The notes beneath the pieces are model-generated. The model was not told where the DNA came from. It saw nothing but the letters and a program-made list of their open reading frames with translations, and made no database searches. A program made the position numbers and the translations under genes. DNA of 64,000 nt from Candidatus Enterousia sp. (GTDB lineage: Bacteria > Pseudomonadota > Alphaproteobacteria > Rs-D84), in assembly GCA_045646625.1 (NCBI GenBank), contig JAZRLB010000007.1:3369-67368 (forward strand), given 5' to 3'. Of this stretch, positions 50,696-63,542 are shown one piece after another. The stretch's first letter is position 1; each line of letters starts with the position of its first letter.

Positions 50696-50745
50696 CTAAA
50701 AAAGATATCTTGATTTTTTTTGTGGTTGGTAATAATATTAGATTC

Positions 50746-50802
50746 ATGAAAATGTTTGGTTCTTTCTTTACTACAACAACTACAACCCCTTTGGGGGTGT
50801 AA
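50746..50802 (+). promoter_or_regulatory. thrS leader peptide MKMFGSFFTTTTTTPLGV*
   Basis: Six consecutive Thr codons upstream of thrS; TTGATT-17-TAATAT promoter immediately upstream. Confidence 0.85.
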
Positions 50803-50887
50803 TTTCTATTTGCGATAAATCGCACAATTTTTTAAAATTAAACAGTTAATCAGATATAAAAAAGTAAAATATAAAAAGGTTAGAATT

Positions 50888-52621
50888 ATGGCATATGATA
50901 TTGAATTAATGCGTCATTCATTAGCGCACGTTATGGCGGCGGCGGTAAAAAAACTGCACCCGGATGTTAAATTTGCGGGTGGGCCCGCAATTGAAAATGG
51001 GTTTTATTATGACTTTGATACAGAATATCGTTTTTCCGAAAATGATTTTGAAAAAATCGAAAAGGAAATGCGTGATTTGATTAAGTCTAATGGGCGTTTT
51101 GAACAGCGTAATGTGTCCCTGGATGAAGCAAAAGAAATCTTTGCAGATCAGCCATACAAAATGGAATGGTTGAATGAATATGATGCGGCTGGTGAAGCGC
51201 TGTCTGTCTATGCTTTCCGTGATTTTGTTGACCTGTGTCGTGGTCCACACGTTGAAAGTTCTAAGGATTTGCCGCGAGACAGTTTCAAAATTCGCAGTGT
51301 TGCAGGCGCATACTGGAAAGGGGATTCGAAAAATAAAATGTTGCAGCGTATCTATGTGGATGCGTTCGCAACTAAAGAAGAATTAGAACAGTTCTTGAAA
51401 ATGCAGGAAGAGGCTGCCGCACGAGATAATCGCAAATTGGGTAAAGATATGGATTTGTTCCATTTTGAACCAGAATATGCGCCGGGGTCTGTGTTCTGGC
51501 ACGACAAGGGATACAGAATGTATCGCAAGCTGATTGAATATGTGCGTCTGCGTCAGGAAATGGCGGGCTATCAGGAAATTTCAACACCTGCTGTTATGGA
51601 CAGGTGTTTGTGGGAAAGATCTGGTCACTGGGCAAAGTATGGCGAACATAACTATTCAGGTAAAACCCAGGATGGCAAAGTGTTCTGTATTAAGCCTATG
51701 TCGTGCCCAGGTGGGATGTTGGTGTTTGGGCACGGTCTGCGTTCTTATAAGGATTTGCCATTGTATATGGCTGAATTTGGTAAGGTTCATCGCTATGAAG
51801 CGGCCGGTGGTTTGTCTGGACTGATGCGTGTGCGTGAATTTACCCAGGACGATGCGCATATCTTTTGCACGGAAGAACAGTTGGAAGAAGAAGTTGTTAA
51901 GATTTTGCGTTTTATCAAAGATATTTATGGAAAATTCGGCTTTGATAAAATTACTATGAAATTGGCAACGCGTAAAGAATCAGAATTCCGTATTGGGTCT
52001 GACGAAATTTGGGACAAAGCCGAAGGCGCATTAAAGCACGCGCTGGATGCGAATGGTATTGAATACGAAATTGCCGAAGGTGATGCCGCGTTCTATGGTC
52101 CAAAGATTGATAACTATCTGCGTGATTCTATGGGACGCGTATGGCAATGCGGTACGGTGCAATTGGATATGAATTTGCCAGAACGTTTTGATTTGTCTTA
52201 TGTTGGCGAAGATGGTGAAAAGCATCGCCCGATTATGTTGCATCGCGCGATGTTGGGTTCGATTGAACGCTTTATGGGCGTATTGTTGGAATCAACAGGT
52301 GGTAATTTGCCGTTGTGGTTGAGTCCAGAACCGGTTGTTGTTGCGCCAATTTCACAAAAATACGCAGAATATGCGAATGAAATTGTGGCGGCTTTGCGAG
52401 CGTCGGGTATAAATGCACGGGCAGATTTGCGTGATGAAAAAGTAAACTATAAAATCCGCGAATTGTCTTTGGCAAAAACACCGATTATCGCGATTGTTGG
52501 AGAAAAAGAAATGGCAGAAAAAATGGTGACTCTGCGTCGTTTGGGTGTTGAAAAGCAGGAATCAATGCCAATGGCGGAATTTGTCGAAATGATGAAAGAT
52601 AGTGTCAAAATGCCGTTGTGA
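50888..52621 (+). CDS. thrS: Threonine--tRNA ligase lacking the N-terminal TGS domain
   Basis: RHSLAH, DLCRGPH, GAYW.G, KPM.CP, RVREFTQDD.H, AFYGPK, HRA..GS.ERF. Confidence 0.98.
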   Translation: MAYDIELMRHSLAHVMAAAVKKLHPDVKFAGGPAIENGFYYDFDTEYRFSENDFEKIEKEMRDLIKSNGRFEQRNVSLDEAKEIFADQPYKMEWLNEYDAAGEALSVYAFRDFVDLCRGPHVESSKDLPRDSFKIRSVAGAYWKGDSKNKMLQRIYVDAFATKEELEQFLKMQEEAAARDNRKLGKDMDLFHFEPEYAPGSVFWHDKGYRMYRKLIEYVRLRQEMAGYQEISTPAVMDRCLWERSGHWAKYGEHNYSGKTQDGKVFCIKPMSCPGGMLVFGHGLRSYKDLPLYMAEFGKVHRYEAAGGLSGLMRVREFTQDDAHIFCTEEQLEEEVVKILRFIKDIYGKFGFDKITMKLATRKESEFRIGSDEIWDKAEGALKHALDANGIEYEIAEGDAAFYGPKIDNYLRDSMGRVWQCGTVQLDMNLPERFDLSYVGEDGEKHRPIMLHRAMLGSIERFMGVLLESTGGNLPLWLSPEPVVVAPISQKYAEYANEIVAALRASGINARADLRDEKVNYKIRELSLAKTPIIAIVGEKEMAEKMVTLRRLGVEKQESMPMAEFVEMMKDSVKMPL

Positions 52622-53942: not shown

Positions 53943-54304
53943 TTATCTGGCTTTTTTCTGATCCATTAAAAAACGAACTTGTTGCAGGCGGTTGCTTAAT
54001 TCGTCGGAATATACGATGATAGAGTTCAGAAAATTCATGGGTTCTGTGTCCAGCTGGACCATATCTGTTGCCGTAATTTTTAACGCAGGGTATGGATACA
54101 TACTGCTTTTAAAAACTTCGGGTTTTATGCCGTGTTGTTCAAAAATAAATTTGCAAATCTTAACGTATTTTTGGGGTTGTGGAATATGGTATCTGCATAG
54201 GATGCCGTTGTGGTCTTTGATGAAAGGGGGGCTTTGATGAGTTTTTTTAATAATTCGGCATCAGTCTTGGTTTATGAATTATACGAGTTTGTTTTGTATG
54301 GCAT
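53943..54304 (-). pseudogene. Disrupted orphan gene
   Basis: AAGGA plus ATG at 54304 hits TAA after 10 codons; a ~105-codon frame ending ...DQKKAR* lacks an N-terminal start. Confidence 0.45.
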
Positions 54305-54419
54305 CGAAAATCCTTTTTGGTAATTTGGGTTCCAAATACAGTACAAAAGAATAGGCTGTCAATGTTGAAATTAGCAGTTTTATGTTGAAAGTTTCTTTTT
54401 TTTGTACTAGAATTCACGC

Positions 54420-54600
54420 GTTGTGTTTAATTGTGTTGACGTGATTGACGACCACCGAGCAGGCGAACACAGATAAAGTTATAAATCAGGGTGGCACCGC
54501 GCGGCCAAATTGACCTGCGCCCCTGAAAACTAACAATTAAGAAAGGGTGCCGAAATTCCAATTTATGTTTTTCGTGCCCGAATTTGAAAAAAAAGGGACC
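54420..54600 (+). promoter_or_regulatory. T-box-like leader of aspS
   Basis: TCAGGG-TGGCACC-GCGC...GCGC-CCCTGA antiterminator at 54486-54526; promoter TTGAAA-17-TAGAAT at 54385-54413. Confidence 0.8.
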
Positions 54601-54603
54601 AAA

Positions 54604-56373
54604 ATGTTATCTTTGAAATCAAAGTACAGAACCCATACTTGTGGTGAATTAAATACATCAAATGTGGGCAACCGTGTTGTTTTGTCGGGGTGGGTGCATC
54701 GTAAACGTGACCATGGCTCGTTGATGTTTGTAGACCTGCGTGATAATTATGGTATTACCCAGGTGGTTTTTGATGGTGGAAATGAAGCACTGGAAAAAGT
54801 GCGCCCAGAATCCGTTATTAAAGTTGTTGGCAATGTTGTCGCACGTGATGCGAATGCTGTTAATGATAAAATTCCAACTGGTGGTATCGAAATTCAGGCG
54901 GAATCTTTTGAAGTTTTAACAAATGCAGATGTGCTGCCTTTCCAGGTGTTCGGCGATGATGATTCTGTGGCCGAGGATTTGCGTTTGAAATATCGCTATA
55001 TTGATTTGAGACGCGAAAGTCTGCACAAGAATATTTTGTTCCGTAATCGCGTTATGAAATTTCTGCGCGATAAAATGTGGGATATGGGATTTTCAGAATT
55101 CCAGACACCAATTTTGACTGCGTCATCACCAGAAGGTGCGCGTGACTTTATCGTGCCAAGTCGTAATCATCACGGTATGTTCTATGCCTTGCCACAGGCG
55201 CCACAGCAGTTTAAGCAGTTTATTCAGATTTCTGGGTTTGATAGATATTTCCAGATTGCGCCTTGTTTCCGTGACGAAGATTTGCGTGCGGACAGATTGT
55301 TAGAATTCTATCAGTTGGATTTGGAAATGTCGTTTGTGGACCTGCCAGATATTCAGGCGGTGGGTAATAAATTAATGCCAGAAATGATTCGCGAATTTGT
55401 GCCAGGTGCAAAAATATGCGAAGAAATTCCACATATTCCATTCGATGAAGCAATGCTGAAATATGGTTCGGATAAACCAGATTTGCGTAATCCGATTATC
55501 ATTTCTGATGTGACTGAAATTTTCCGTGGGTCTGATTTTGGTATCTTTGCGAATGCGGTTGAAAATGGCAGCGTCGTTCGCGCAATTCCGGCACCAAATT
55601 CGGCGGATAAACCACGTTCTTGGTTTGATAAACTGGGGGAATTTGCAGTCAAAGAATTAGGACTGGGTGGTTTGGGATACATCGTGTTTGCAGATGAGGC
55701 CAAAGGACCTGTTGCAAAAAAATTGGATTCGGAACATATCGCAAAGTTGCGTGAAATCGCAGGTGATAATTCATCATTGTTCTTTGTTTGTGACGAAGTA
55801 AATGCCGCCGCCAAGGCAGCTGGTAAATTGCGTAACAAGTTGGGTGATGATTTAGGGTTGATTGATCCAAAGGAATTCCGTTTCTGTTGGATAGAAGAAT
55901 TTCCGTTCTTTGAAGCGGACGAAGAATCACCAACAGGTATCGCGTTTACGCATAATCCGTTCTCGTTCCCGATGGCAACGTTGGAAGAACTGAATACTAA
56001 AAATCCATTGGAAATCAAAGCGGCGCAGTTCGATATGGTGTTGAATGGCGCAGAAATCTGCAGTGGTGGTTTGCGCAACTTTAACCCAGAAGTTATGTTG
56101 AAATGCTTTGATATCACCGGGTACAGTGAAGAAGTTGTAAAAGAAAAATTTGGTGGTATGTATACTGCATTCCAATATGGTGCGCCACCACACGGTGGTT
56201 GTGCGTTTGGGTTGGATCGACTGGTTCAGATTATGTTGGATGAACCAAACCTGCGCCAGGTTGTGATATTCCCAACGAATCAGCGTGGTCAGGACTTGAT
56301 GATGGGGGCGCCGACAACTGTGACTGAAAAACAGTTGCGCGAAGTACACATTCAGGTGCGCAAGAAAAACTAA
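54604..56373 (+). CDS. aspS: Aspartate--tRNA ligase, probably non-discriminating
   Basis: YRTHTCGEL, RDHG (His of ND-AspRS), PEGARDF, LPQAPQQFKQ, GAPPHGG.A.GLDR. Confidence 0.98.
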   Translation: MLSLKSKYRTHTCGELNTSNVGNRVVLSGWVHRKRDHGSLMFVDLRDNYGITQVVFDGGNEALEKVRPESVIKVVGNVVARDANAVNDKIPTGGIEIQAESFEVLTNADVLPFQVFGDDDSVAEDLRLKYRYIDLRRESLHKNILFRNRVMKFLRDKMWDMGFSEFQTPILTASSPEGARDFIVPSRNHHGMFYALPQAPQQFKQFIQISGFDRYFQIAPCFRDEDLRADRLLEFYQLDLEMSFVDLPDIQAVGNKLMPEMIREFVPGAKICEEIPHIPFDEAMLKYGSDKPDLRNPIIISDVTEIFRGSDFGIFANAVENGSVVRAIPAPNSADKPRSWFDKLGEFAVKELGLGGLGYIVFADEAKGPVAKKLDSEHIAKLREIAGDNSSLFFVCDEVNAAAKAAGKLRNKLGDDLGLIDPKEFRFCWIEEFPFFEADEESPTGIAFTHNPFSFPMATLEELNTKNPLEIKAAQFDMVLNGAEICSGGLRNFNPEVMLKCFDITGYSEEVVKEKFGGMYTAFQYGAPPHGGCAFGLDRLVQIMLDEPNLRQVVIFPTNQRGQDLMMGAPTTVTEKQLREVHIQVRKKN

Positions 56374-60951: not shown

Positions 60952-61026
60952 GCCCCCATCGTCTAGCGGTTAGGACATCAGATTCTCATTCTGGCAACAC
61001 GGGTTCGATTCCCGTTGGGGGTGCCA
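60952..61026 (+). tRNA. tRNA-Glu(CTC)
   Basis: GCCCCCA/TGGGGGT stem, TTCTCAT loop, TTCGATT, CCA. Confidence 0.92.
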
Positions 61027-61081
61027 AGTTTATGTTAAAGTATAAAATAAAAATCCTGCTGAAAAGCAGGATTTTTGTTTG

Positions 61082-62359
61082 TTAGTGTTTCCCGCCGATT
61101 TTTGTTCGATTGCCCATTAATGGCTGTAATTTCTTTGGAATATTTACCGAGCCGTCTGGGTTTTGGTGGTTTTCAATTACAGGCACAATTGCGCGGGGCA
61201 GGGCAATACCTGTGTTATTTAATGTTGCACAGAACTGTAATGTGCCGTCTGTGGCGCGGTAACGGGTGTTCGTACGACGTGCTTGGAATTGACCAATCGA
61301 TGAACAAGACCCCAGTTCGCGATATGTGCCTTCGCTTGGGAACCAGGCTTCGACATCGTGCATTTTTACTTTGTTAAAACCCATGTCGCCCGTGCAGGCT
61401 GCAATGACACGGTATGGTAATTCTAAATCTTCCATAATTTCGCACAGGTTGTTCAATAAATGTTCGTGCATTTCGTCCGACTGTTCAGGTGTGCAATAGA
61501 TGTATTGTTCAACCTTGTTAAATTGATGTATACGCACGATTCCGCGGGTGTCACGCCCTGCCGCCCCAGCTTCTTTGCGGAAACAAGGTGAATAGCCTGC
61601 GTATTTAATTGGCAAATCTTTTTCATTCAAAACTTCATCAGAATGTAAAGAATTCAAAACGATTTCTGCTGTCCCTGCCAAACATCTATCTGTATCAGTC
61701 AACATGAACACATCATTGTTCATGACCGACAAATCCGACCCCATAAAGTGCCCCGCATTAAAGATTGTTTGTGGTTTTGTAATTGCTGGACAGTTCACAA
61801 ATGTAAAGCCCTTGCTGATTAATTTCTGTAACACATATGTCTGAATTGCCAATTCTAATTCGGCAGCTTCACCAAACAAAGCGTATGTACGCGCACCACA
61901 AATTGATGCAATTTTATCATTCTTCCACCAACCATTCATTTCCAACAATTCCCATTGTGGACGTGGTGTAAAGTCAAATTCACGTGGTGTGCCAACGCGC
62001 CGCACCTCTACATTTTCTGTATCATCCTTGCCAACTGGTGCATCTGCAGATGGCACCTGCGGTACACGCAACAGCAAATCATGCAACAAATCTTCCTTTT
62101 CGGCCAACTCTGCCAATTCCGCAGCAATTTCAGCTGCAATTTCTTTACTGCGCGCAATCAATGGCGCTTTGTCTGTTGCAGTTGGTATTTCCCGTGTGAT
62201 TTTATTTTTCTCAGCGGTCTTGGATTGTGTAACCGTTTTCAATTCACGCACACGCACATCCAAAGACAGAATTTCATCAACCTTGTCTTCATAGCCCTTT
62301 AATTCACATGCCTTTTTAACAGCATCTGGATTTTCACGAATAAATTTCATATCCAACAT
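61082..62359 (-). CDS. serS: Serine--tRNA ligase
   Basis: MLD.K.IR, LAGTAE, CFRKEAG.AGRDTRG..R.HQF.KVE, E..SCS, TLN.T. Confidence 0.97.
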   Translation of the reverse strand: MLDMKFIRENPDAVKKACELKGYEDKVDEILSLDVRVRELKTVTQSKTAEKNKITREIPTATDKAPLIARSKEIAAEIAAELAELAEKEDLLHDLLLRVPQVPSADAPVGKDDTENVEVRRVGTPREFDFTPRPQWELLEMNGWWKNDKIASICGARTYALFGEAAELELAIQTYVLQKLISKGFTFVNCPAITKPQTIFNAGHFMGSDLSVMNNDVFMLTDTDRCLAGTAEIVLNSLHSDEVLNEKDLPIKYAGYSPCFRKEAGAAGRDTRGIVRIHQFNKVEQYIYCTPEQSDEMHEHLLNNLCEIMEDLELPYRVIAACTGDMGFNKVKMHDVEAWFPSEGTYRELGSCSSIGQFQARRTNTRYRATDGTLQFCATLNNTGIALPRAIVPVIENHQNPDGSVNIPKKLQPLMGNRTKIGGKH

Positions 62360-62439
62360 AGTATTCTACCTTTTTGATTTATTTGGATTATATCTTAGAA
62401 CAGTTTATATTTCTTGTAAAGAAAATGAATACGCAAAAA

Positions 62440-62493
62440 CTATACCCCCAACGGGGATGAAGAACGACTAAAAAACACAAATTTCATATTCAT
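62440..62493 (-). promoter_or_regulatory. serS leader peptide MNMKFVFFSRSSSPLGV*
   Basis: Ser codons AGT, TCT, TCA, TCC clustered upstream of serS; TTGAAT-17-TATAAT promoter 9 nt before the ATG. Confidence 0.8.
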
Positions 62494-62610
62494 AACACCC
62501 CAATTATAAAACATTTTTCAAACACATTCAAGATATTCCGATTTTATTTGCATAATATTCTTATGTTGTGTATGCTATGCCCGAATAATAAAGGGAAAGG
62601 TATTACTGTT

Positions 62611-63513
62611 ATGTACGATATTATTATCTTGGGTTCTGGGCCTGCAGGATTAACAGCGGCATTATACGCGGCGCGCGCAAACAAAAAAACATTGGTTTTA
62701 GGTGGCGATCGTTTGGGCGGTCAAATGGCAGGTATTGCTACATTAGAAAACTATCCTGGATGGGCGGGCAGCGGTTACGAACTGGCTGAATTTATGAAAA
62801 AACAATGTGAAACATTTGGCGCAATTGTTGAATTTGCATCTGCGAAAAACATCTCTGGCGATGCTGACAACGGCTTTACTATCACATGCGATAACAACAA
62901 AGAATATGTTGGCAAGGTTATAATAATTGCCACAGGCGCATCACCACGCAAACTAGAAATCACGGGCGCACGCGAATTCATGGGTCGTGGCGTATCATAT
63001 TGCGCAACATGCGACGGATTTTTCTATACTGGCAAAACAGTTATTGTTATGGGCGGTGGCAACAGCGCATTGAACGATGCACTATATCTGGCCGACTTGG
63101 CAAAAACAGTAAAGATTGTTTACCGCAAATCAGAATTTTTCCGCGCGGAAAGTGTTTTACGCGAACGCGTAGCTGCACGCGATAATATTGAATGTCTGTT
63201 CAATACAGACCTGGCAAAAATCGCCGCAAAACCAGATTCCGAAGACGGTGAATTAATTGTAACAACAACAAACGGCGATGAAATTATTGTTGACGGGGTA
63301 TTTGTTGCAATTGGACACGAAGCCAACACAGACTATCTGACAGAAAACATCAAACGCGATGGCATGGGTCGTTTGGCACCAGACGCATTACCCGCTGGCA
63401 TGTTTGTTGCCGGCGATGTCCACAGCGACATAAAAATGCAAATTGCCACAGCTGTCGGCACAGGATGTACAGCAGGAATGGATGCGATTGCATTTCTTAA
63501 TTCACGCGCTTAA
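62611..63513 (+). CDS. trxB: Thioredoxin-disulfide reductase
   Basis: GSGPAGLTAA, ENYPG, GVSYCATCDG, GGGNSA, GD. Confidence 0.95.
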   Translation: MYDIIILGSGPAGLTAALYAARANKKTLVLGGDRLGGQMAGIATLENYPGWAGSGYELAEFMKKQCETFGAIVEFASAKNISGDADNGFTITCDNNKEYVGKVIIIATGASPRKLEITGAREFMGRGVSYCATCDGFFYTGKTVIVMGGGNSALNDALYLADLAKTVKIVYRKSEFFRAESVLRERVAARDNIECLFNTDLAKIAAKPDSEDGELIVTTTNGDEIIVDGVFVAIGHEANTDYLTENIKRDGMGRLAPDALPAGMFVAGDVHSDIKMQIATAVGTGCTAGMDAIAFLNSRA

Positions 63514-63516
63514 AAG

Positions 63517-63541
63517 AATCCGCCACACGGCGGATTTTTTT
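63517..63541. terminator. Bidirectional terminator
   Basis: AATCCGCC-ACAC-GGCGGATT plus a T tract. Confidence 0.75.
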
Positions 63542-63542
63542 A

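Follow-up and report, generated by a model that had tools for sequence, protein, structure and literature searches.

The window analyzed here, a stretch of 64,000 nucleotides, comes from a gut alphaproteobacterium with a small (0.96-Mb) genome that belongs to the order Rs-D84, among Candidatus Enterousia and its kin. On its minus strand we find serS, encoding a seryl-tRNA synthetase of 425 aa (61082 to 62359; TIGR00414, 413.5 bits, cut-off 301.65), with a Shine-Dalgarno-like AAGGTAG read directly at 62366 to 62372. The gene is followed by a strong intrinsic terminator (61049 to 61076, minus strand; -14.9 kcal/mol, z = -6.75), used here as a comparator, and shares its upstream intergenic region with a divergent thioredoxin-reductase-like gene on the plus strand (62611 to 63513; TIGR01292, E = 1e-85, under the curated cut-off).

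Direct reading of the minus strand upstream of serS gives the order P1, putatively near-leaderless short open reading frame (sORF), hairpin, T5 run and serS. P1 is a sigma-70-like promoter at 62531-62503 (TTGAAT-17-TATAAT, 10/12 consensus match); a promoter scan places its -35 hexamer TTGAAT at 62526 to 62531 and its -10 hexamer TATAAT at 62503 to 62508, 9 nt upstream of the sORF ATG. The sORF, MNMKFVFFSRSSSPLGV, occupies 62440 to 62493 as 17 codons plus TAG (ATG at 62493, then AAT ATG AAA TTT GTG TTT TTT AGT CGT TCT TCA TCC CCG TTG GGG GTA TAG), and direct reading reveals no Shine-Dalgarno sequence ahead of it. This is the frame quoted in the first-pass annotation, and it is present letter for letter, as are the four different Ser codons in five positions (AGT, TCT, TCA and TCC, from both codon families) to which that annotation drew attention. 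These putative regulatory codons, AGT CGT TCT TCA TCC, span 62455 to 62469, and the last of them lies within the 5' arm of the hairpin that was likewise said to follow. We read this terminator-like hairpin as ATCCCC-GTT-GGGGGT (62444 to 62458, overlapping sORF codons 13-17), followed by ATAG and then by the T5 run (62435 to 62439); the ATAG contains the sORF stop codon (62442-62440), 2 nt past the stem. From the end of the sORF to the start of serS, on the same strand, there are 80 nt, which include a second promoter-like element, P2 (TTTACA-17-TAAGAT, 62392 to 62420, minus strand; 9/12). The genome carries tRNA-Ser genes with anticodons gct, gga, tga, and cga.

The core of the hairpin is the one usual for terminators in this genome, CCCC-N3-6-GGGG, found at 130 sites outside long ORFs, of which 106 have a T-rich tail. 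With its T5 run the hairpin passes a terminator consensus scan; its energy is weak (-8.4 kcal/mol, compared with -14.9 and -18.9 for the neighboring terminators), it overlaps the sORF, and the stop codon of the latter breaks up its T-run. Regulatory RNA families give no match: the serS intergenic region yielded no Rfam family even when E values as high as 10 were allowed, and six tRNAs are the only RNA-family matches in the whole window. No T-box (RF00230) turns up in the region (E ≤ 10), in the window (gathering score), or in the genome (E ≤ 0.001), and relatives show sub-threshold matches only. Metatranscriptome contigs (0.08 of words; 85% likeness) cover only positions 60972-61555, that is, the conserved 3' part of serS and a tRNA, and are mostly those of relatives.

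Taken by itself, as one sequence, the serS leader makes a weak case and does not go beyond chance. Its hairpin has z = -1.3, with 17/200 shuffles folding equally well, and for the 166-nt leader as a whole the fold is no more stable than those of shuffles (z = +1.12). Promoter-like sites are not enriched in the serS upstream region (6, compared with 6.9 in shuffles), and sORFs with amino-acid runs are no more frequent genome-wide than in shuffled sequence (4 loci versus 3-8 loci). Since the total of such sORFs is at the shuffle level, the weight is carried solely by the identity of the genes downstream. We judge the leader to be above chance because of the cross-genome comparison and the sister leaders of the same genome.

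Conservation of the leader within Rs-D84

For the comparison we used a cassette detector that asks for a -10 box, 4-11 nt, an ATG, 8-30 codons, and a CCCC or CCGC hairpin at the end of the sORF, and that does not require Ser. Upstream of serS, this Ser-blind detector finds the cassette in 55/128 species genomes of the order Rs-D84 and none in the other 73. The positives comprise 48/95 genomes of one genus (g1) and 4/14 in other genera of the same family, while the other families contribute 1/2 (f5), 2/2 (f6), 0/4 (f2), 0/10 (f3), and 0/1 (f4). Applied to 28 other alphaproteobacterial families, the same detector finds no serS cassette.

Where the cassette occurs, the position of the sORF ahead of serS is conserved among relatives and its spacing from the promoter is narrow: the distance from -10 box to ATG is 9 nt in 41/79 and 10 nt in 33/79 distinct detector matches (74/79 together). 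A P1-like promoter matching at least 8/12 consensus positions precedes all 78 of the 78 distinct leaders, and one matching at least 9/12 precedes 73/78. A P2-like match of at least 9/12 between hairpin and serS was found in 37/78, the best P2 score averaging 7.7 compared with 6.2 in shuffles; part of serS transcription may thus be driven from P2 and bypass the leader.

Among the 78 distinct sORFs, the peptide is weakly conserved apart from the Ser run and the hairpin. Counting codon positions from the hairpin codon as 0, we observe Ser at position 0 in 78/78 sORFs, at -1 in 77/78, and at -4 in 62/78. It was expected of an ortholog alignment that AGY and TCN codons would replace each other, and at position -4 both families are indeed used (AGT 46, AGC 2, TCT 8, TCA 4, and TCG 2); Cys and Thr, through which AGY and TCN are connected by single steps, also occur there. 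Retention of Ser is moreover specific to the frame, Ser codons filling 133/312 of the positions -5 to -2 in frame versus 37/312 and 30/312 in the other two frames, and the Ser share of the proteome is 6.0%. Variants exist: one subclade has serS leaders with two or three Ser codons only, and in one genus the leader is Leu-rich and contains a single Ser. The Ser codons are preceded by a T-rich tract.

The hairpin is the sole conserved structure in a consensus fold of 50 serS leaders (RNAalifold). It keeps a fixed position in the leader. In two distant genomes it is retained through a double change, CCCC/GGGG to CCGC/GCGG, with the peptide differing as well, and in distant relatives the sORF stop falls in the hairpin loop. 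No conserved antiterminator was detected in the single fold, in the consensus fold of the 50 serS leaders, or in folds of thrS leaders with blocked segments, and the serS leader is thus not a classical attenuator. A candidate antiterminator that could form in this genome by pairing of a 5' GGGGTG with CATCCCC was dropped, as it is not conserved in relatives. We also rejected a -1 frameshift site (T6-A before the Ser codons), which is out of register and reads TTTTTC in many relatives, and a second ORF using the G-rich 3' arm as a Shine-Dalgarno sequence, for which no conserved start codon follows downstream.

Sister leaders before thrS, hisS, and ileS

Three further synthetase genes of the same genome are preceded by sORFs with runs of their cognate amino acid: six Thr before thrS, two His (HH) before hisS, and four Ile before ileS. 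All four genes, serS included, score above their NCBIfam cut-offs. The thrS leader lies in the same window as the serS leader, on the plus strand. By direct reading, its P1 (TTGATT-17-TAATAT, 50710 to 50738) stands 7 nt upstream of the ATG of an sORF with six Thr codons, MKMFGSFFTTTTTTPLGV (50746 to 50802), which is conserved in 26/30 loci. The hairpin TACA-A-CCCC TTT(G) GGGG-TGTA (50781 to 50801; -10.7 kcal/mol) is followed by ATTTCTATTT and then by P2 (TTGCGA-17-TAAAAT, 50810 to 50838), which contains a small palindrome, hairpin B (TGCGA-TAAA-TCGCA). The gene itself, encoding a threonyl-tRNA synthetase of 577 aa, extends from 50888 to 52621 (TIGR00418, 686 bits, cut-off 383.65). Folding of thrS leaders with blocked segments gave no alternative pairing.

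Within the genus, the hisS leader is conserved in at least 19/21 and the ileS leader in 24/24. The latter folds as a classical switch: holding the ribosome on the Ile codons leaves the antiterminator free, and blocking the RNA to slightly beyond the stop codon lets the terminator form. In the Ser, Thr, and His cassettes, both codons adjoining the hairpin are cognate, and the hisS leader has only those two. That cognate codons are flush with the hairpin in three cassette types fits occlusion of the hairpin by the ribosome.

Besides thrS and serS, a composition-blind scan of the genome for the cassette returned only another copy of serS and one match that is probably due to chance. Among the other synthetase genes inspected by eye, namely the Val, Leu, Met-like, Asp, and Lys/Asn-like genes and two more of class II (frames of 485 and 454 aa), none has a convincing cognate leader.

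Candidate mechanisms at the hairpin

The element had been read in the first-pass annotation as a ribosome-mediated sensor of Ser-tRNA charging. The AGY/TCN exchange, the frame-specific Ser codons, the cognate sister leaders, and the missing T-box largely support that reading, and we consider it very probable that a ribosomal sensor of Ser codons acts on serS. For the full statement, direction included, namely a minimal ribosome-mediated attenuator that works without an antiterminator and in which a shortage of Ser leads to read-through into serS, we would put the chances at slightly less than even; that the sORF is translated, that transcripts end at the hairpin and, most of all, which way serS responds are here inferred. 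In this scheme the strong P1 would start the transcript, its first codon only some 2-3 nt inside the predicted 5' end, and Ser codons of both families would abut and enter the 5' arm of the hairpin. When Ser-tRNA(Ser) is short, the ribosome would dwell on TCT, TCA, and TCC near the hairpin and bury the 5' arm, so that no hairpin could form behind RNA polymerase and P1 transcripts would continue into serS, adding to a basal output from the weaker downstream P2. With Ser-tRNA plentiful, the hairpin would form on more of the transcripts and transcription would be stopped.

Two observations concern the sign of this response. As the sORF crosses the hairpin, a ribosome close behind the polymerase should keep the hairpin from forming when Ser-tRNA is abundant too, which speaks against equating a stall with read-through, and a ribosome stopped at AGT, the first Ser codon, 12 nt ahead of CCCC, would let it form. 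Given an sORF running through the hairpin and so distant an AGT, simple kinetics fit the opposite sign at least equally well. Such kinetics are those of pyrBI and pyrE of E. coli, where the leader frame reaches or crosses the terminator hairpin, T-rich tracts occur upstream, and there is no antiterminator; the closeness of ribosome and polymerase sets whether the hairpin forms, slower translation gives more termination, and UTP is sensed via polymerase pausing. The serS leader shares with these systems the ORF through the hairpin, the upstream T-rich tract, and the lack of an antiterminator, and departs from them in that it would sense an amino acid via cognate codons rather than UTP. The gene-specific codon runs argue for tRNA charging, not an NTP, as the signal.

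That the same sensor works with these opposite kinetics, a pacing ribosome covering the hairpin and a stall at the first Ser codon causing termination, appears unlikely to us, even though it would account for several features. Among them are the span of the sORF, with its stop 2 nt beyond the hairpin or, in distant relatives, in the loop; the T-rich tract; and a P2 within about 12 nt of the hairpin in thrS and many serS loci. The most conserved Ser codon outside the hairpin, moreover, lies 12 nt before CCCC and about 30 nt before the T-run, where a stall would, given usual ribosome footprint sizes, free the hairpin. A further feature is the covarying hairpin B inside the P2 spacer, which shows selection to act on the read-through RNA. 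Coupling of this kind would, however, by itself lower serS expression upon starvation and become homeostatic only if read-through from P1 interferes with P2; lacking such interference, it amounts to positive feedback, self-destructive for an essential gene, and a P2 of at least 9/12 is present in only 37/78 serS leaders. The hisS leader has just two His codons, both directly against the hairpin, and a stall there would cover it rather than free it; the ileS leader of the same genome follows the classical logic.

The same Ser sensor could have an output other than intrinsic termination, with ribosome position governing how serS is translated, how stable the mRNA is, whether Rho gains access, or whether RNases process the AU-rich stretch after the hairpin; we regard this as quite improbable. 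The weak hairpin and interrupted T-run would suit such an output, as would the Rho encoded in the genome and the AU-rich linker with a conserved 5'-proximal hairpin B downstream; the RNA downstream is, however, C-poor by eye, and the hairpin has a normal terminator core and sits at the usual place of a terminator, ahead of a promoter. Translation is also the level at which the closest known leaderless sensor, the polycysteine sORFs of mycobacteria, is reported to act (10.1101/834739). The serS leader would resemble those sORFs in combining a leaderless cognate run with a stalled ribosome that physically blocks an RNA structure, in a design common to several loci. It differs in having a terminator-like hairpin about 80 nt before the synthetase gene and in showing no pairing between sORF and ribosome-binding site. 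Across 50 loci, the sORF is no more complementary to the serS ribosome-binding site than expected from shuffles (mean z = -0.15; z below -2 in 5/50), and sequestration of the mycobacterial type is not supported.

It is less plausible still that P1, sORF, and hairpin form an independent small gene, for a peptide or small RNA, which lies upstream of the true serS promoter P2 and exerts no control in cis. The three parts do make up a complete unit with a P2-like promoter next to it in many genomes, and attenuator RNAs and peptides released in another alphaproteobacterium can act in trans, as reported in PMC6614838. Against this, in four independent cases the run encodes the amino acid of the synthetase that follows, the composition-blind scan places the unit only before these synthetase genes, and the peptide is poorly conserved outside run and hairpin; where P2 is weak or undetectable, in about half of the leaders, P1 would be the sole promoter of an essential gene. 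Finally, a chance ORF and a chance hairpin in an AT-rich 5' region would agree with the single-sequence controls (hairpin, promoter match, and fold within shuffle range, and single-amino-acid runs as common in promoter-proximal sORFs of shuffled upstream regions) and is hardly credible, as it is already contradicted by the comparative data, with their fixed frame and promoter spacing, synonymous Ser exchanges across several families, absence before serS in 28 other families, and cognate sister leaders.

Relation to known systems

Leader-peptide attenuation is known chiefly from biosynthetic operons; among the few synthetase genes with it, pheM-pheST in gamma-proteobacteria (Phe) is the demonstrated case. 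Predicted leader-peptide attenuators include those of trpS2 (Trp) and leuS (Leu) in Streptomyces and of a hisS paralogue (His) in bacilli (PMC1262725, PMC2965389). With all of these the serS leader has in common an upstream short ORF with cognate codons, a synthetase gene as the target, and a presumed dependence on ribosome speed. Leaders of the pheM-pheST type, however, combine a terminator with an antiterminator and have an ORF that ends before the terminator; here we observe no conserved antiterminator, an ORF through the hairpin, a predicted near-leaderless start, serine as the cognate amino acid, and often a second promoter. The ileS leader of the same genome fits the classical type. T-box leaders of Firmicutes, including those of serS, perform the same task of tying synthetase expression to the charging of the cognate tRNA, and they do so through an RNA of about 200 nt that binds uncharged tRNA without translation, a family with no match in the serS leader. 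Our literature search turned up no published leader with Ser codons, nor any for serS or thrS; the supplements of attenuator surveys may list further synthetase leaders.

A wider, tentative reading, which we think somewhat improbable, is that the lineage has evolved a portable minimal cassette, re-coded for Ser, Thr, or His and set before the own promoter of each synthetase gene, in which ribosome and hairpin compete directly without an antiterminator. Its parts would be a strong promoter, a leaderless sORF that opens with hydrophobic, Phe-rich residues, an exchangeable cognate run, and a Pro-Leu-Gly-X-stop end encoding the terminator hairpin typical of the genome. It may also act via read-through polymerases that interfere with P2, in whose spacer the covarying hairpin B resides. 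The lineage is described as lacking amino-acid biosynthesis (PMC12306168); with those pathways lost, the synthetase genes remain as targets for regulation.

For annotators, the cassette pattern is worth seeking in reduced genomes without T-boxes. As a compact natural test bed, it lets one ask how small an RNA suffices for control by the ribosome, whether a stall near a terminator means occlusion or loss of coupling, and how a sensor is re-coded between amino acids. If true, a portable cassette joining ribosome-hairpin competition to interference with P2 would constitute a new leader-peptide regulatory logic. On the sensor reading itself, an organism that has lost amino-acid biosynthesis would still have at least four of its synthetase genes under ribosome-based sensing, with one stripped-down cassette, free of an antiterminator, common to three of the leaders.

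Layout and serine codons of the serS leader

The serS gene (61082-62359, minus strand; NCBIfam TIGR00414, above cut-off) is separated by an intergenic gap of 251 bp from a divergent thioredoxin-reductase-like gene (62611-63513, plus strand; NCBIfam TIGR01292, E = 1e-85, below cut-off), and the leader elements lie within this gap on the minus strand. A sigma-70-like promoter, P1 (62531-62503; TTGAAT-17-TATAAT, 10/12 match), is followed after 9 bases by the ATG of a 17-codon small open reading frame (sORF), MNMKFVFFSRSSSPLGV, which ends with TAG at 62442-62440. Its final codons form the hairpin ATCCCC-GTT-GGGGGT (62458-62444), 3' of which stand ATAG and a T5 run (62439-62435). Farther toward serS we find a second promoter-like element, P2 (62420-62392; TTTACA-17-TAAGAT), with a weaker match than P1, and a Shine-Dalgarno-like AAGGTAG between P2 and the serS start. 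The codons and hairpin quoted in the first-pass annotation, which had proposed a Ser-codon leader peptide sensing the charging of Ser-tRNA, are identical to the sequence on this strand.

The genome (0.96 Mb, 20 contigs) belongs to Candidatus Enterousia, a member of the order Rs-D84 whose genomes are described as reduced and without amino acid biosynthesis pathways (PMC12306168). Its tRNA-Ser genes carry the anticodons gct, gga, tga, and cga, so the four Ser codons of the leader would need three isoacceptors, all charged by SerRS. A second reductase gene-leader-serS arrangement lies at a contig end (C19:108299-110397); the encoded SerS, truncated by the contig end, is 87% identical across residues 1-306 and has its own leader, MKKAFVFFSSSSSPLGE*. 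This copy probably stems from a co-binned related strain and is not a true duplication.

Judged on the window sequence alone, the leader is not above chance. The hairpin has a folding energy of -8.4 kcal/mol (z = -1.3 against shuffles), compared with -14.9 and -18.9 kcal/mol (z near -6.8) for two real terminators nearby, while the entire leader folds more poorly than most shuffles (z = +1.12), which also contain equally many promoter-like matches. An Rfam search of the leader region matched no family, and a T-box search across the genome gave no match. Of 41 related genomes, 20 (G032, G028, and G025 among them) have T-box matches below threshold; the best of these, in a genome from another family, reaches 90.4 bits, the gathering score being 93.

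Upstream regions of serS were therefore compared across the order, taking one genome per species (128 genomes), with a detector that calls for a -10-like box, 4 to 11 nt, ATG, 8 to 30 codons, and a CCCC/CCGC hairpin at the sORF end, and that imposes no serine requirement. This cassette of promoter, sORF, and terminal hairpin was detected in 55 of the 128 genomes: 48/95 in the genus itself, 4/14 in other genera of the family, 1/2 in family f5, 2/2 in f6, and none in f2 (0/4), f3 (0/10), or f4 (0/1). One serS locus cut by a contig end and two variant leaders, one with a stop codon in the hairpin loop and one Leu-rich with a single Ser, are scored as misses in these counts. The Leu-rich leader, from another genus of the family (L096; MKKLFLLLSPRGV*), keeps the hairpin position and carries a Leu-rich run with one Ser codon, and is a counter-example against strict Ser enrichment. 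In a further 28 alphaproteobacterial families, each represented by one genome, no cassette was detected before serS; one locus, whose genome carries an unpublished flag, was excluded. The reductase gene differs in orientation from one species of the genus to another, being co-oriented and directly upstream of serS in 8 of 24 same-genus loci (L014, L016-L018, L020, and L022-L024), in some with gaps of approximately 10 to 25 nt, and none of the eight has a leader; among these loci and L001-L013, the leader is confined to the divergent arrangement.

With 80 added records the set comprised 209 serS upstream sequences and contained many duplicates; 93 were detector positive and yielded 79 distinct sORFs, or 78 after removal of one false positive. 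With the TCC inside the hairpin arm numbered 0, Ser occupies position 0 in 78/78 and position -1 in 77/78 (TCA 71, TCG 6), followed by 36/78 at -2, 22/78 at -3, and 62/78 at -4 (AGT 46, AGC 2, TCT 8, TCA 4, TCG 2); positions -5 and -6 are Phe in most. The predicted AGY/TCN interchange is thus present at the homologous position -4, these counts being sequences and not independent events. Such an exchange takes two base changes, and the one-step intermediates Cys and Thr also occur there. Ser codons at -5 to -2 number 133/312 in frame (mean Ser content of the proteome, 6.0%) versus 37/312 and 30/312 in the other frames.

A promoter matching at 9/12 or better precedes 73 of the 78 leaders, and the distance from -10 box to ATG is 9 or 10 nt in 74 of the 79 detector hits. 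No Shine-Dalgarno sequence lies upstream of the sORF ATG, whereas the synthetase genes do have one. From this spacing and the missing Shine-Dalgarno sequence, we infer that the transcript from which the sORF is read is leaderless or nearly so.

Sister leaders upstream of thrS, hisS, and ileS

When promoter-proximal sORFs containing any single-amino-acid run were sought across the genome, four loci emerged: serS, its truncated second copy, thrS (MKMFGSFFTTTTTTPLGV), and ileS (MKQTTIIIIK), the genes being named by NCBIfam. Shuffled upstream regions yield as many run-bearing sORFs (3 to 8 loci), so the evidential weight rests on the match between run and gene and not on their number. A composition-blind scan for the cassette matched only thrS, both copies of serS, and one further site that is probably a chance hit. 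Inspection of the sequence upstream of ten other synthetase genes revealed one more leader, MINKNVFFIVFHHARAGEY* with a terminal GC hairpin, before hisS.

The thrS leader (50710-50838, plus strand; sORF 50746-50802, thrS 50888-52621) has six Thr codons and is present in 26 of 30 loci examined, comprising all 23 same-genus loci for which upstream sequence exists, plus three from two other families; the other four are one locus without upstream sequence and three leaderless loci of family f3. It shares with the serS leader Phe-Phe before the run, a Pro-Leu-Gly-Val-stop end, and the CCCC/GGGG hairpin, and to judge by sequence the two are evidently copies of a single cassette with the codon run swapped. 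The hisS leader (L112), approximately 138 to 78 nt before hisS (C2:63781-65082), has two His codons flush with a GC hairpin whose stem covaries across species, and an extended -10 promoter-like element, TGATATAAT, on its 3' side; within the genus it occurs at 19 or more of 21 loci, and elsewhere at 0/7.

The ileS leader (L111), approximately 106 to 30 nt before ileS (C8:10036-13059), contains an antiterminator followed by a GGCGC...GCGCC-T6 terminator 30 nt before the gene, and was seen by eye in 24/24 same-genus loci and 0/6 of family f3. In four of the 24 it lies directly 3' of a tRNA gene. When the RNA is folded free, or blocked over the Ile codons only, a hairpin forms that uses the 5' arm of the terminator; when it is blocked a few bases past the stop codon, the terminator forms. 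Ile stalling would thus yield read-through, and on these predicted folds the ileS leader is a textbook attenuator. The serS, thrS, and hisS leaders have no alternative structure, and their reading frame passes through the hairpin.

We also observe a long region (approximately 54300-54546, plus strand) before an aspartyl-tRNA-synthetase-like gene (PF00152 match, 54973-56283), with a good promoter-like match, a GC-rich segment able to pair (GGGTGGCACCGCGCGGCC ... CTGCGCCCCTG), and a putative frame that opens with GTG and includes two Asp codons; it has no Rfam match.

Hairpin, ribosome, and putative second promoter

In a consensus fold of 50 serS leaders the hairpin is the sole conserved structure, and in two distant genomes it is maintained via a C-G to G-C exchange, with the peptide changing from SSPLG to SSAMRG/SSAMGG. 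Its core matches that of the usual intrinsic terminators of the genome, which are bidirectional and of the form A5-TCCCC-N3-5-GGGGA-T5 (e.g., 63511-63542 and 61045-61080); CCCC-N3-6-GGGG is found at 130 sites outside long ORFs when both strands are counted, of which 106 have a T-rich tail, and at only 18 sites inside. In leaderless relatives the terminator of the upstream gene takes the same position, separated from the serS promoter by a few bases. This standard core and terminator-like position suggest that the hairpin is a putative terminator.

Output would then be a contest between ribosome and hairpin. The footprint of a ribosome extends approximately 12 nt past the first A-site base, and its melting of structure reaches slightly less far. 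A ribosome with its A site at TCT, TCA, or TCC would cover the 5' arm of the hairpin, and at AGT it would only abut it. We favor an occlusion model, in which a Ser stall would allow read-through and more serS. We do so since this model is homeostatic, as are the ileS leader of the same genome and, to our knowledge, all known synthetase controls, and since in each of the three cassette types both codons directly adjoining the hairpin are cognate, the hisS leader having only these two. Its kinetic weakness is that a ribosome close behind the polymerase would cover the hairpin during plenty as well. Conversely, stalling at the first Ser or Thr codon would keep the ribosome off the hairpin. Both points follow the logic of the pyrBI attenuator, the sign of which is opposite to that of occlusion. 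Output may also be Rho dependent, Rho being encoded in the genome. A mechanism like that of the mycobacterial polyCys sORFs, in which the sORF would pair with the ribosome-binding site of serS, was tested and is unsupported.

These models are complicated by P2, which lies 3' of the hairpin in 37 of the 78 serS leaders (at least a 9/12 match) and, by eye, in most thrS loci (TTGCGN-16/17-TATAAT; in the window, TTGCGA-17-TAAAAT) and most hisS loci (TGNTATAAT). Its spacer frequently contains a small hairpin or palindrome, B, overlapping the -35 hexamer, at 50811-50824 (plus strand) for thrS, with a matching site 3' of the serS leader in relatives (e.g., L003, L004, L005, and L015). The halves of B covary among species (GCGA/TCGC, GCGG/CCGC, GCGC/GCGC, GCAC/GTGC), and as RNA it could form solely in read-through transcripts from P1, which points to selection on the read-through RNA.

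Leader-peptide attenuators of synthetase genes, known or predicted, include pheST of gammaproteobacteria. Others are described for trpS2 and leuS of Streptomyces (PMC1262725) and for a hisS paralogue in bacilli (PMC2965389), and leaderless cognate-codon sORFs acting through stalled ribosomes are described for mycobacterial cysteine genes (10.1101/834739). We found no published Ser-codon leader, or serS or thrS leader, in the literature, although supplementary tables or a survey of proteobacterial attenuators might list one. Classical attenuators have an antiterminator, whereas none was found for the serS leader, which therefore lies outside that family; in operation it most likely works like a classical attenuator. 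The element before serS is real, and the frame-specific Ser codons, the AGY/TCN exchange, and the cognate sister leaders support its proposed reading as a serine-sensing leader peptide.
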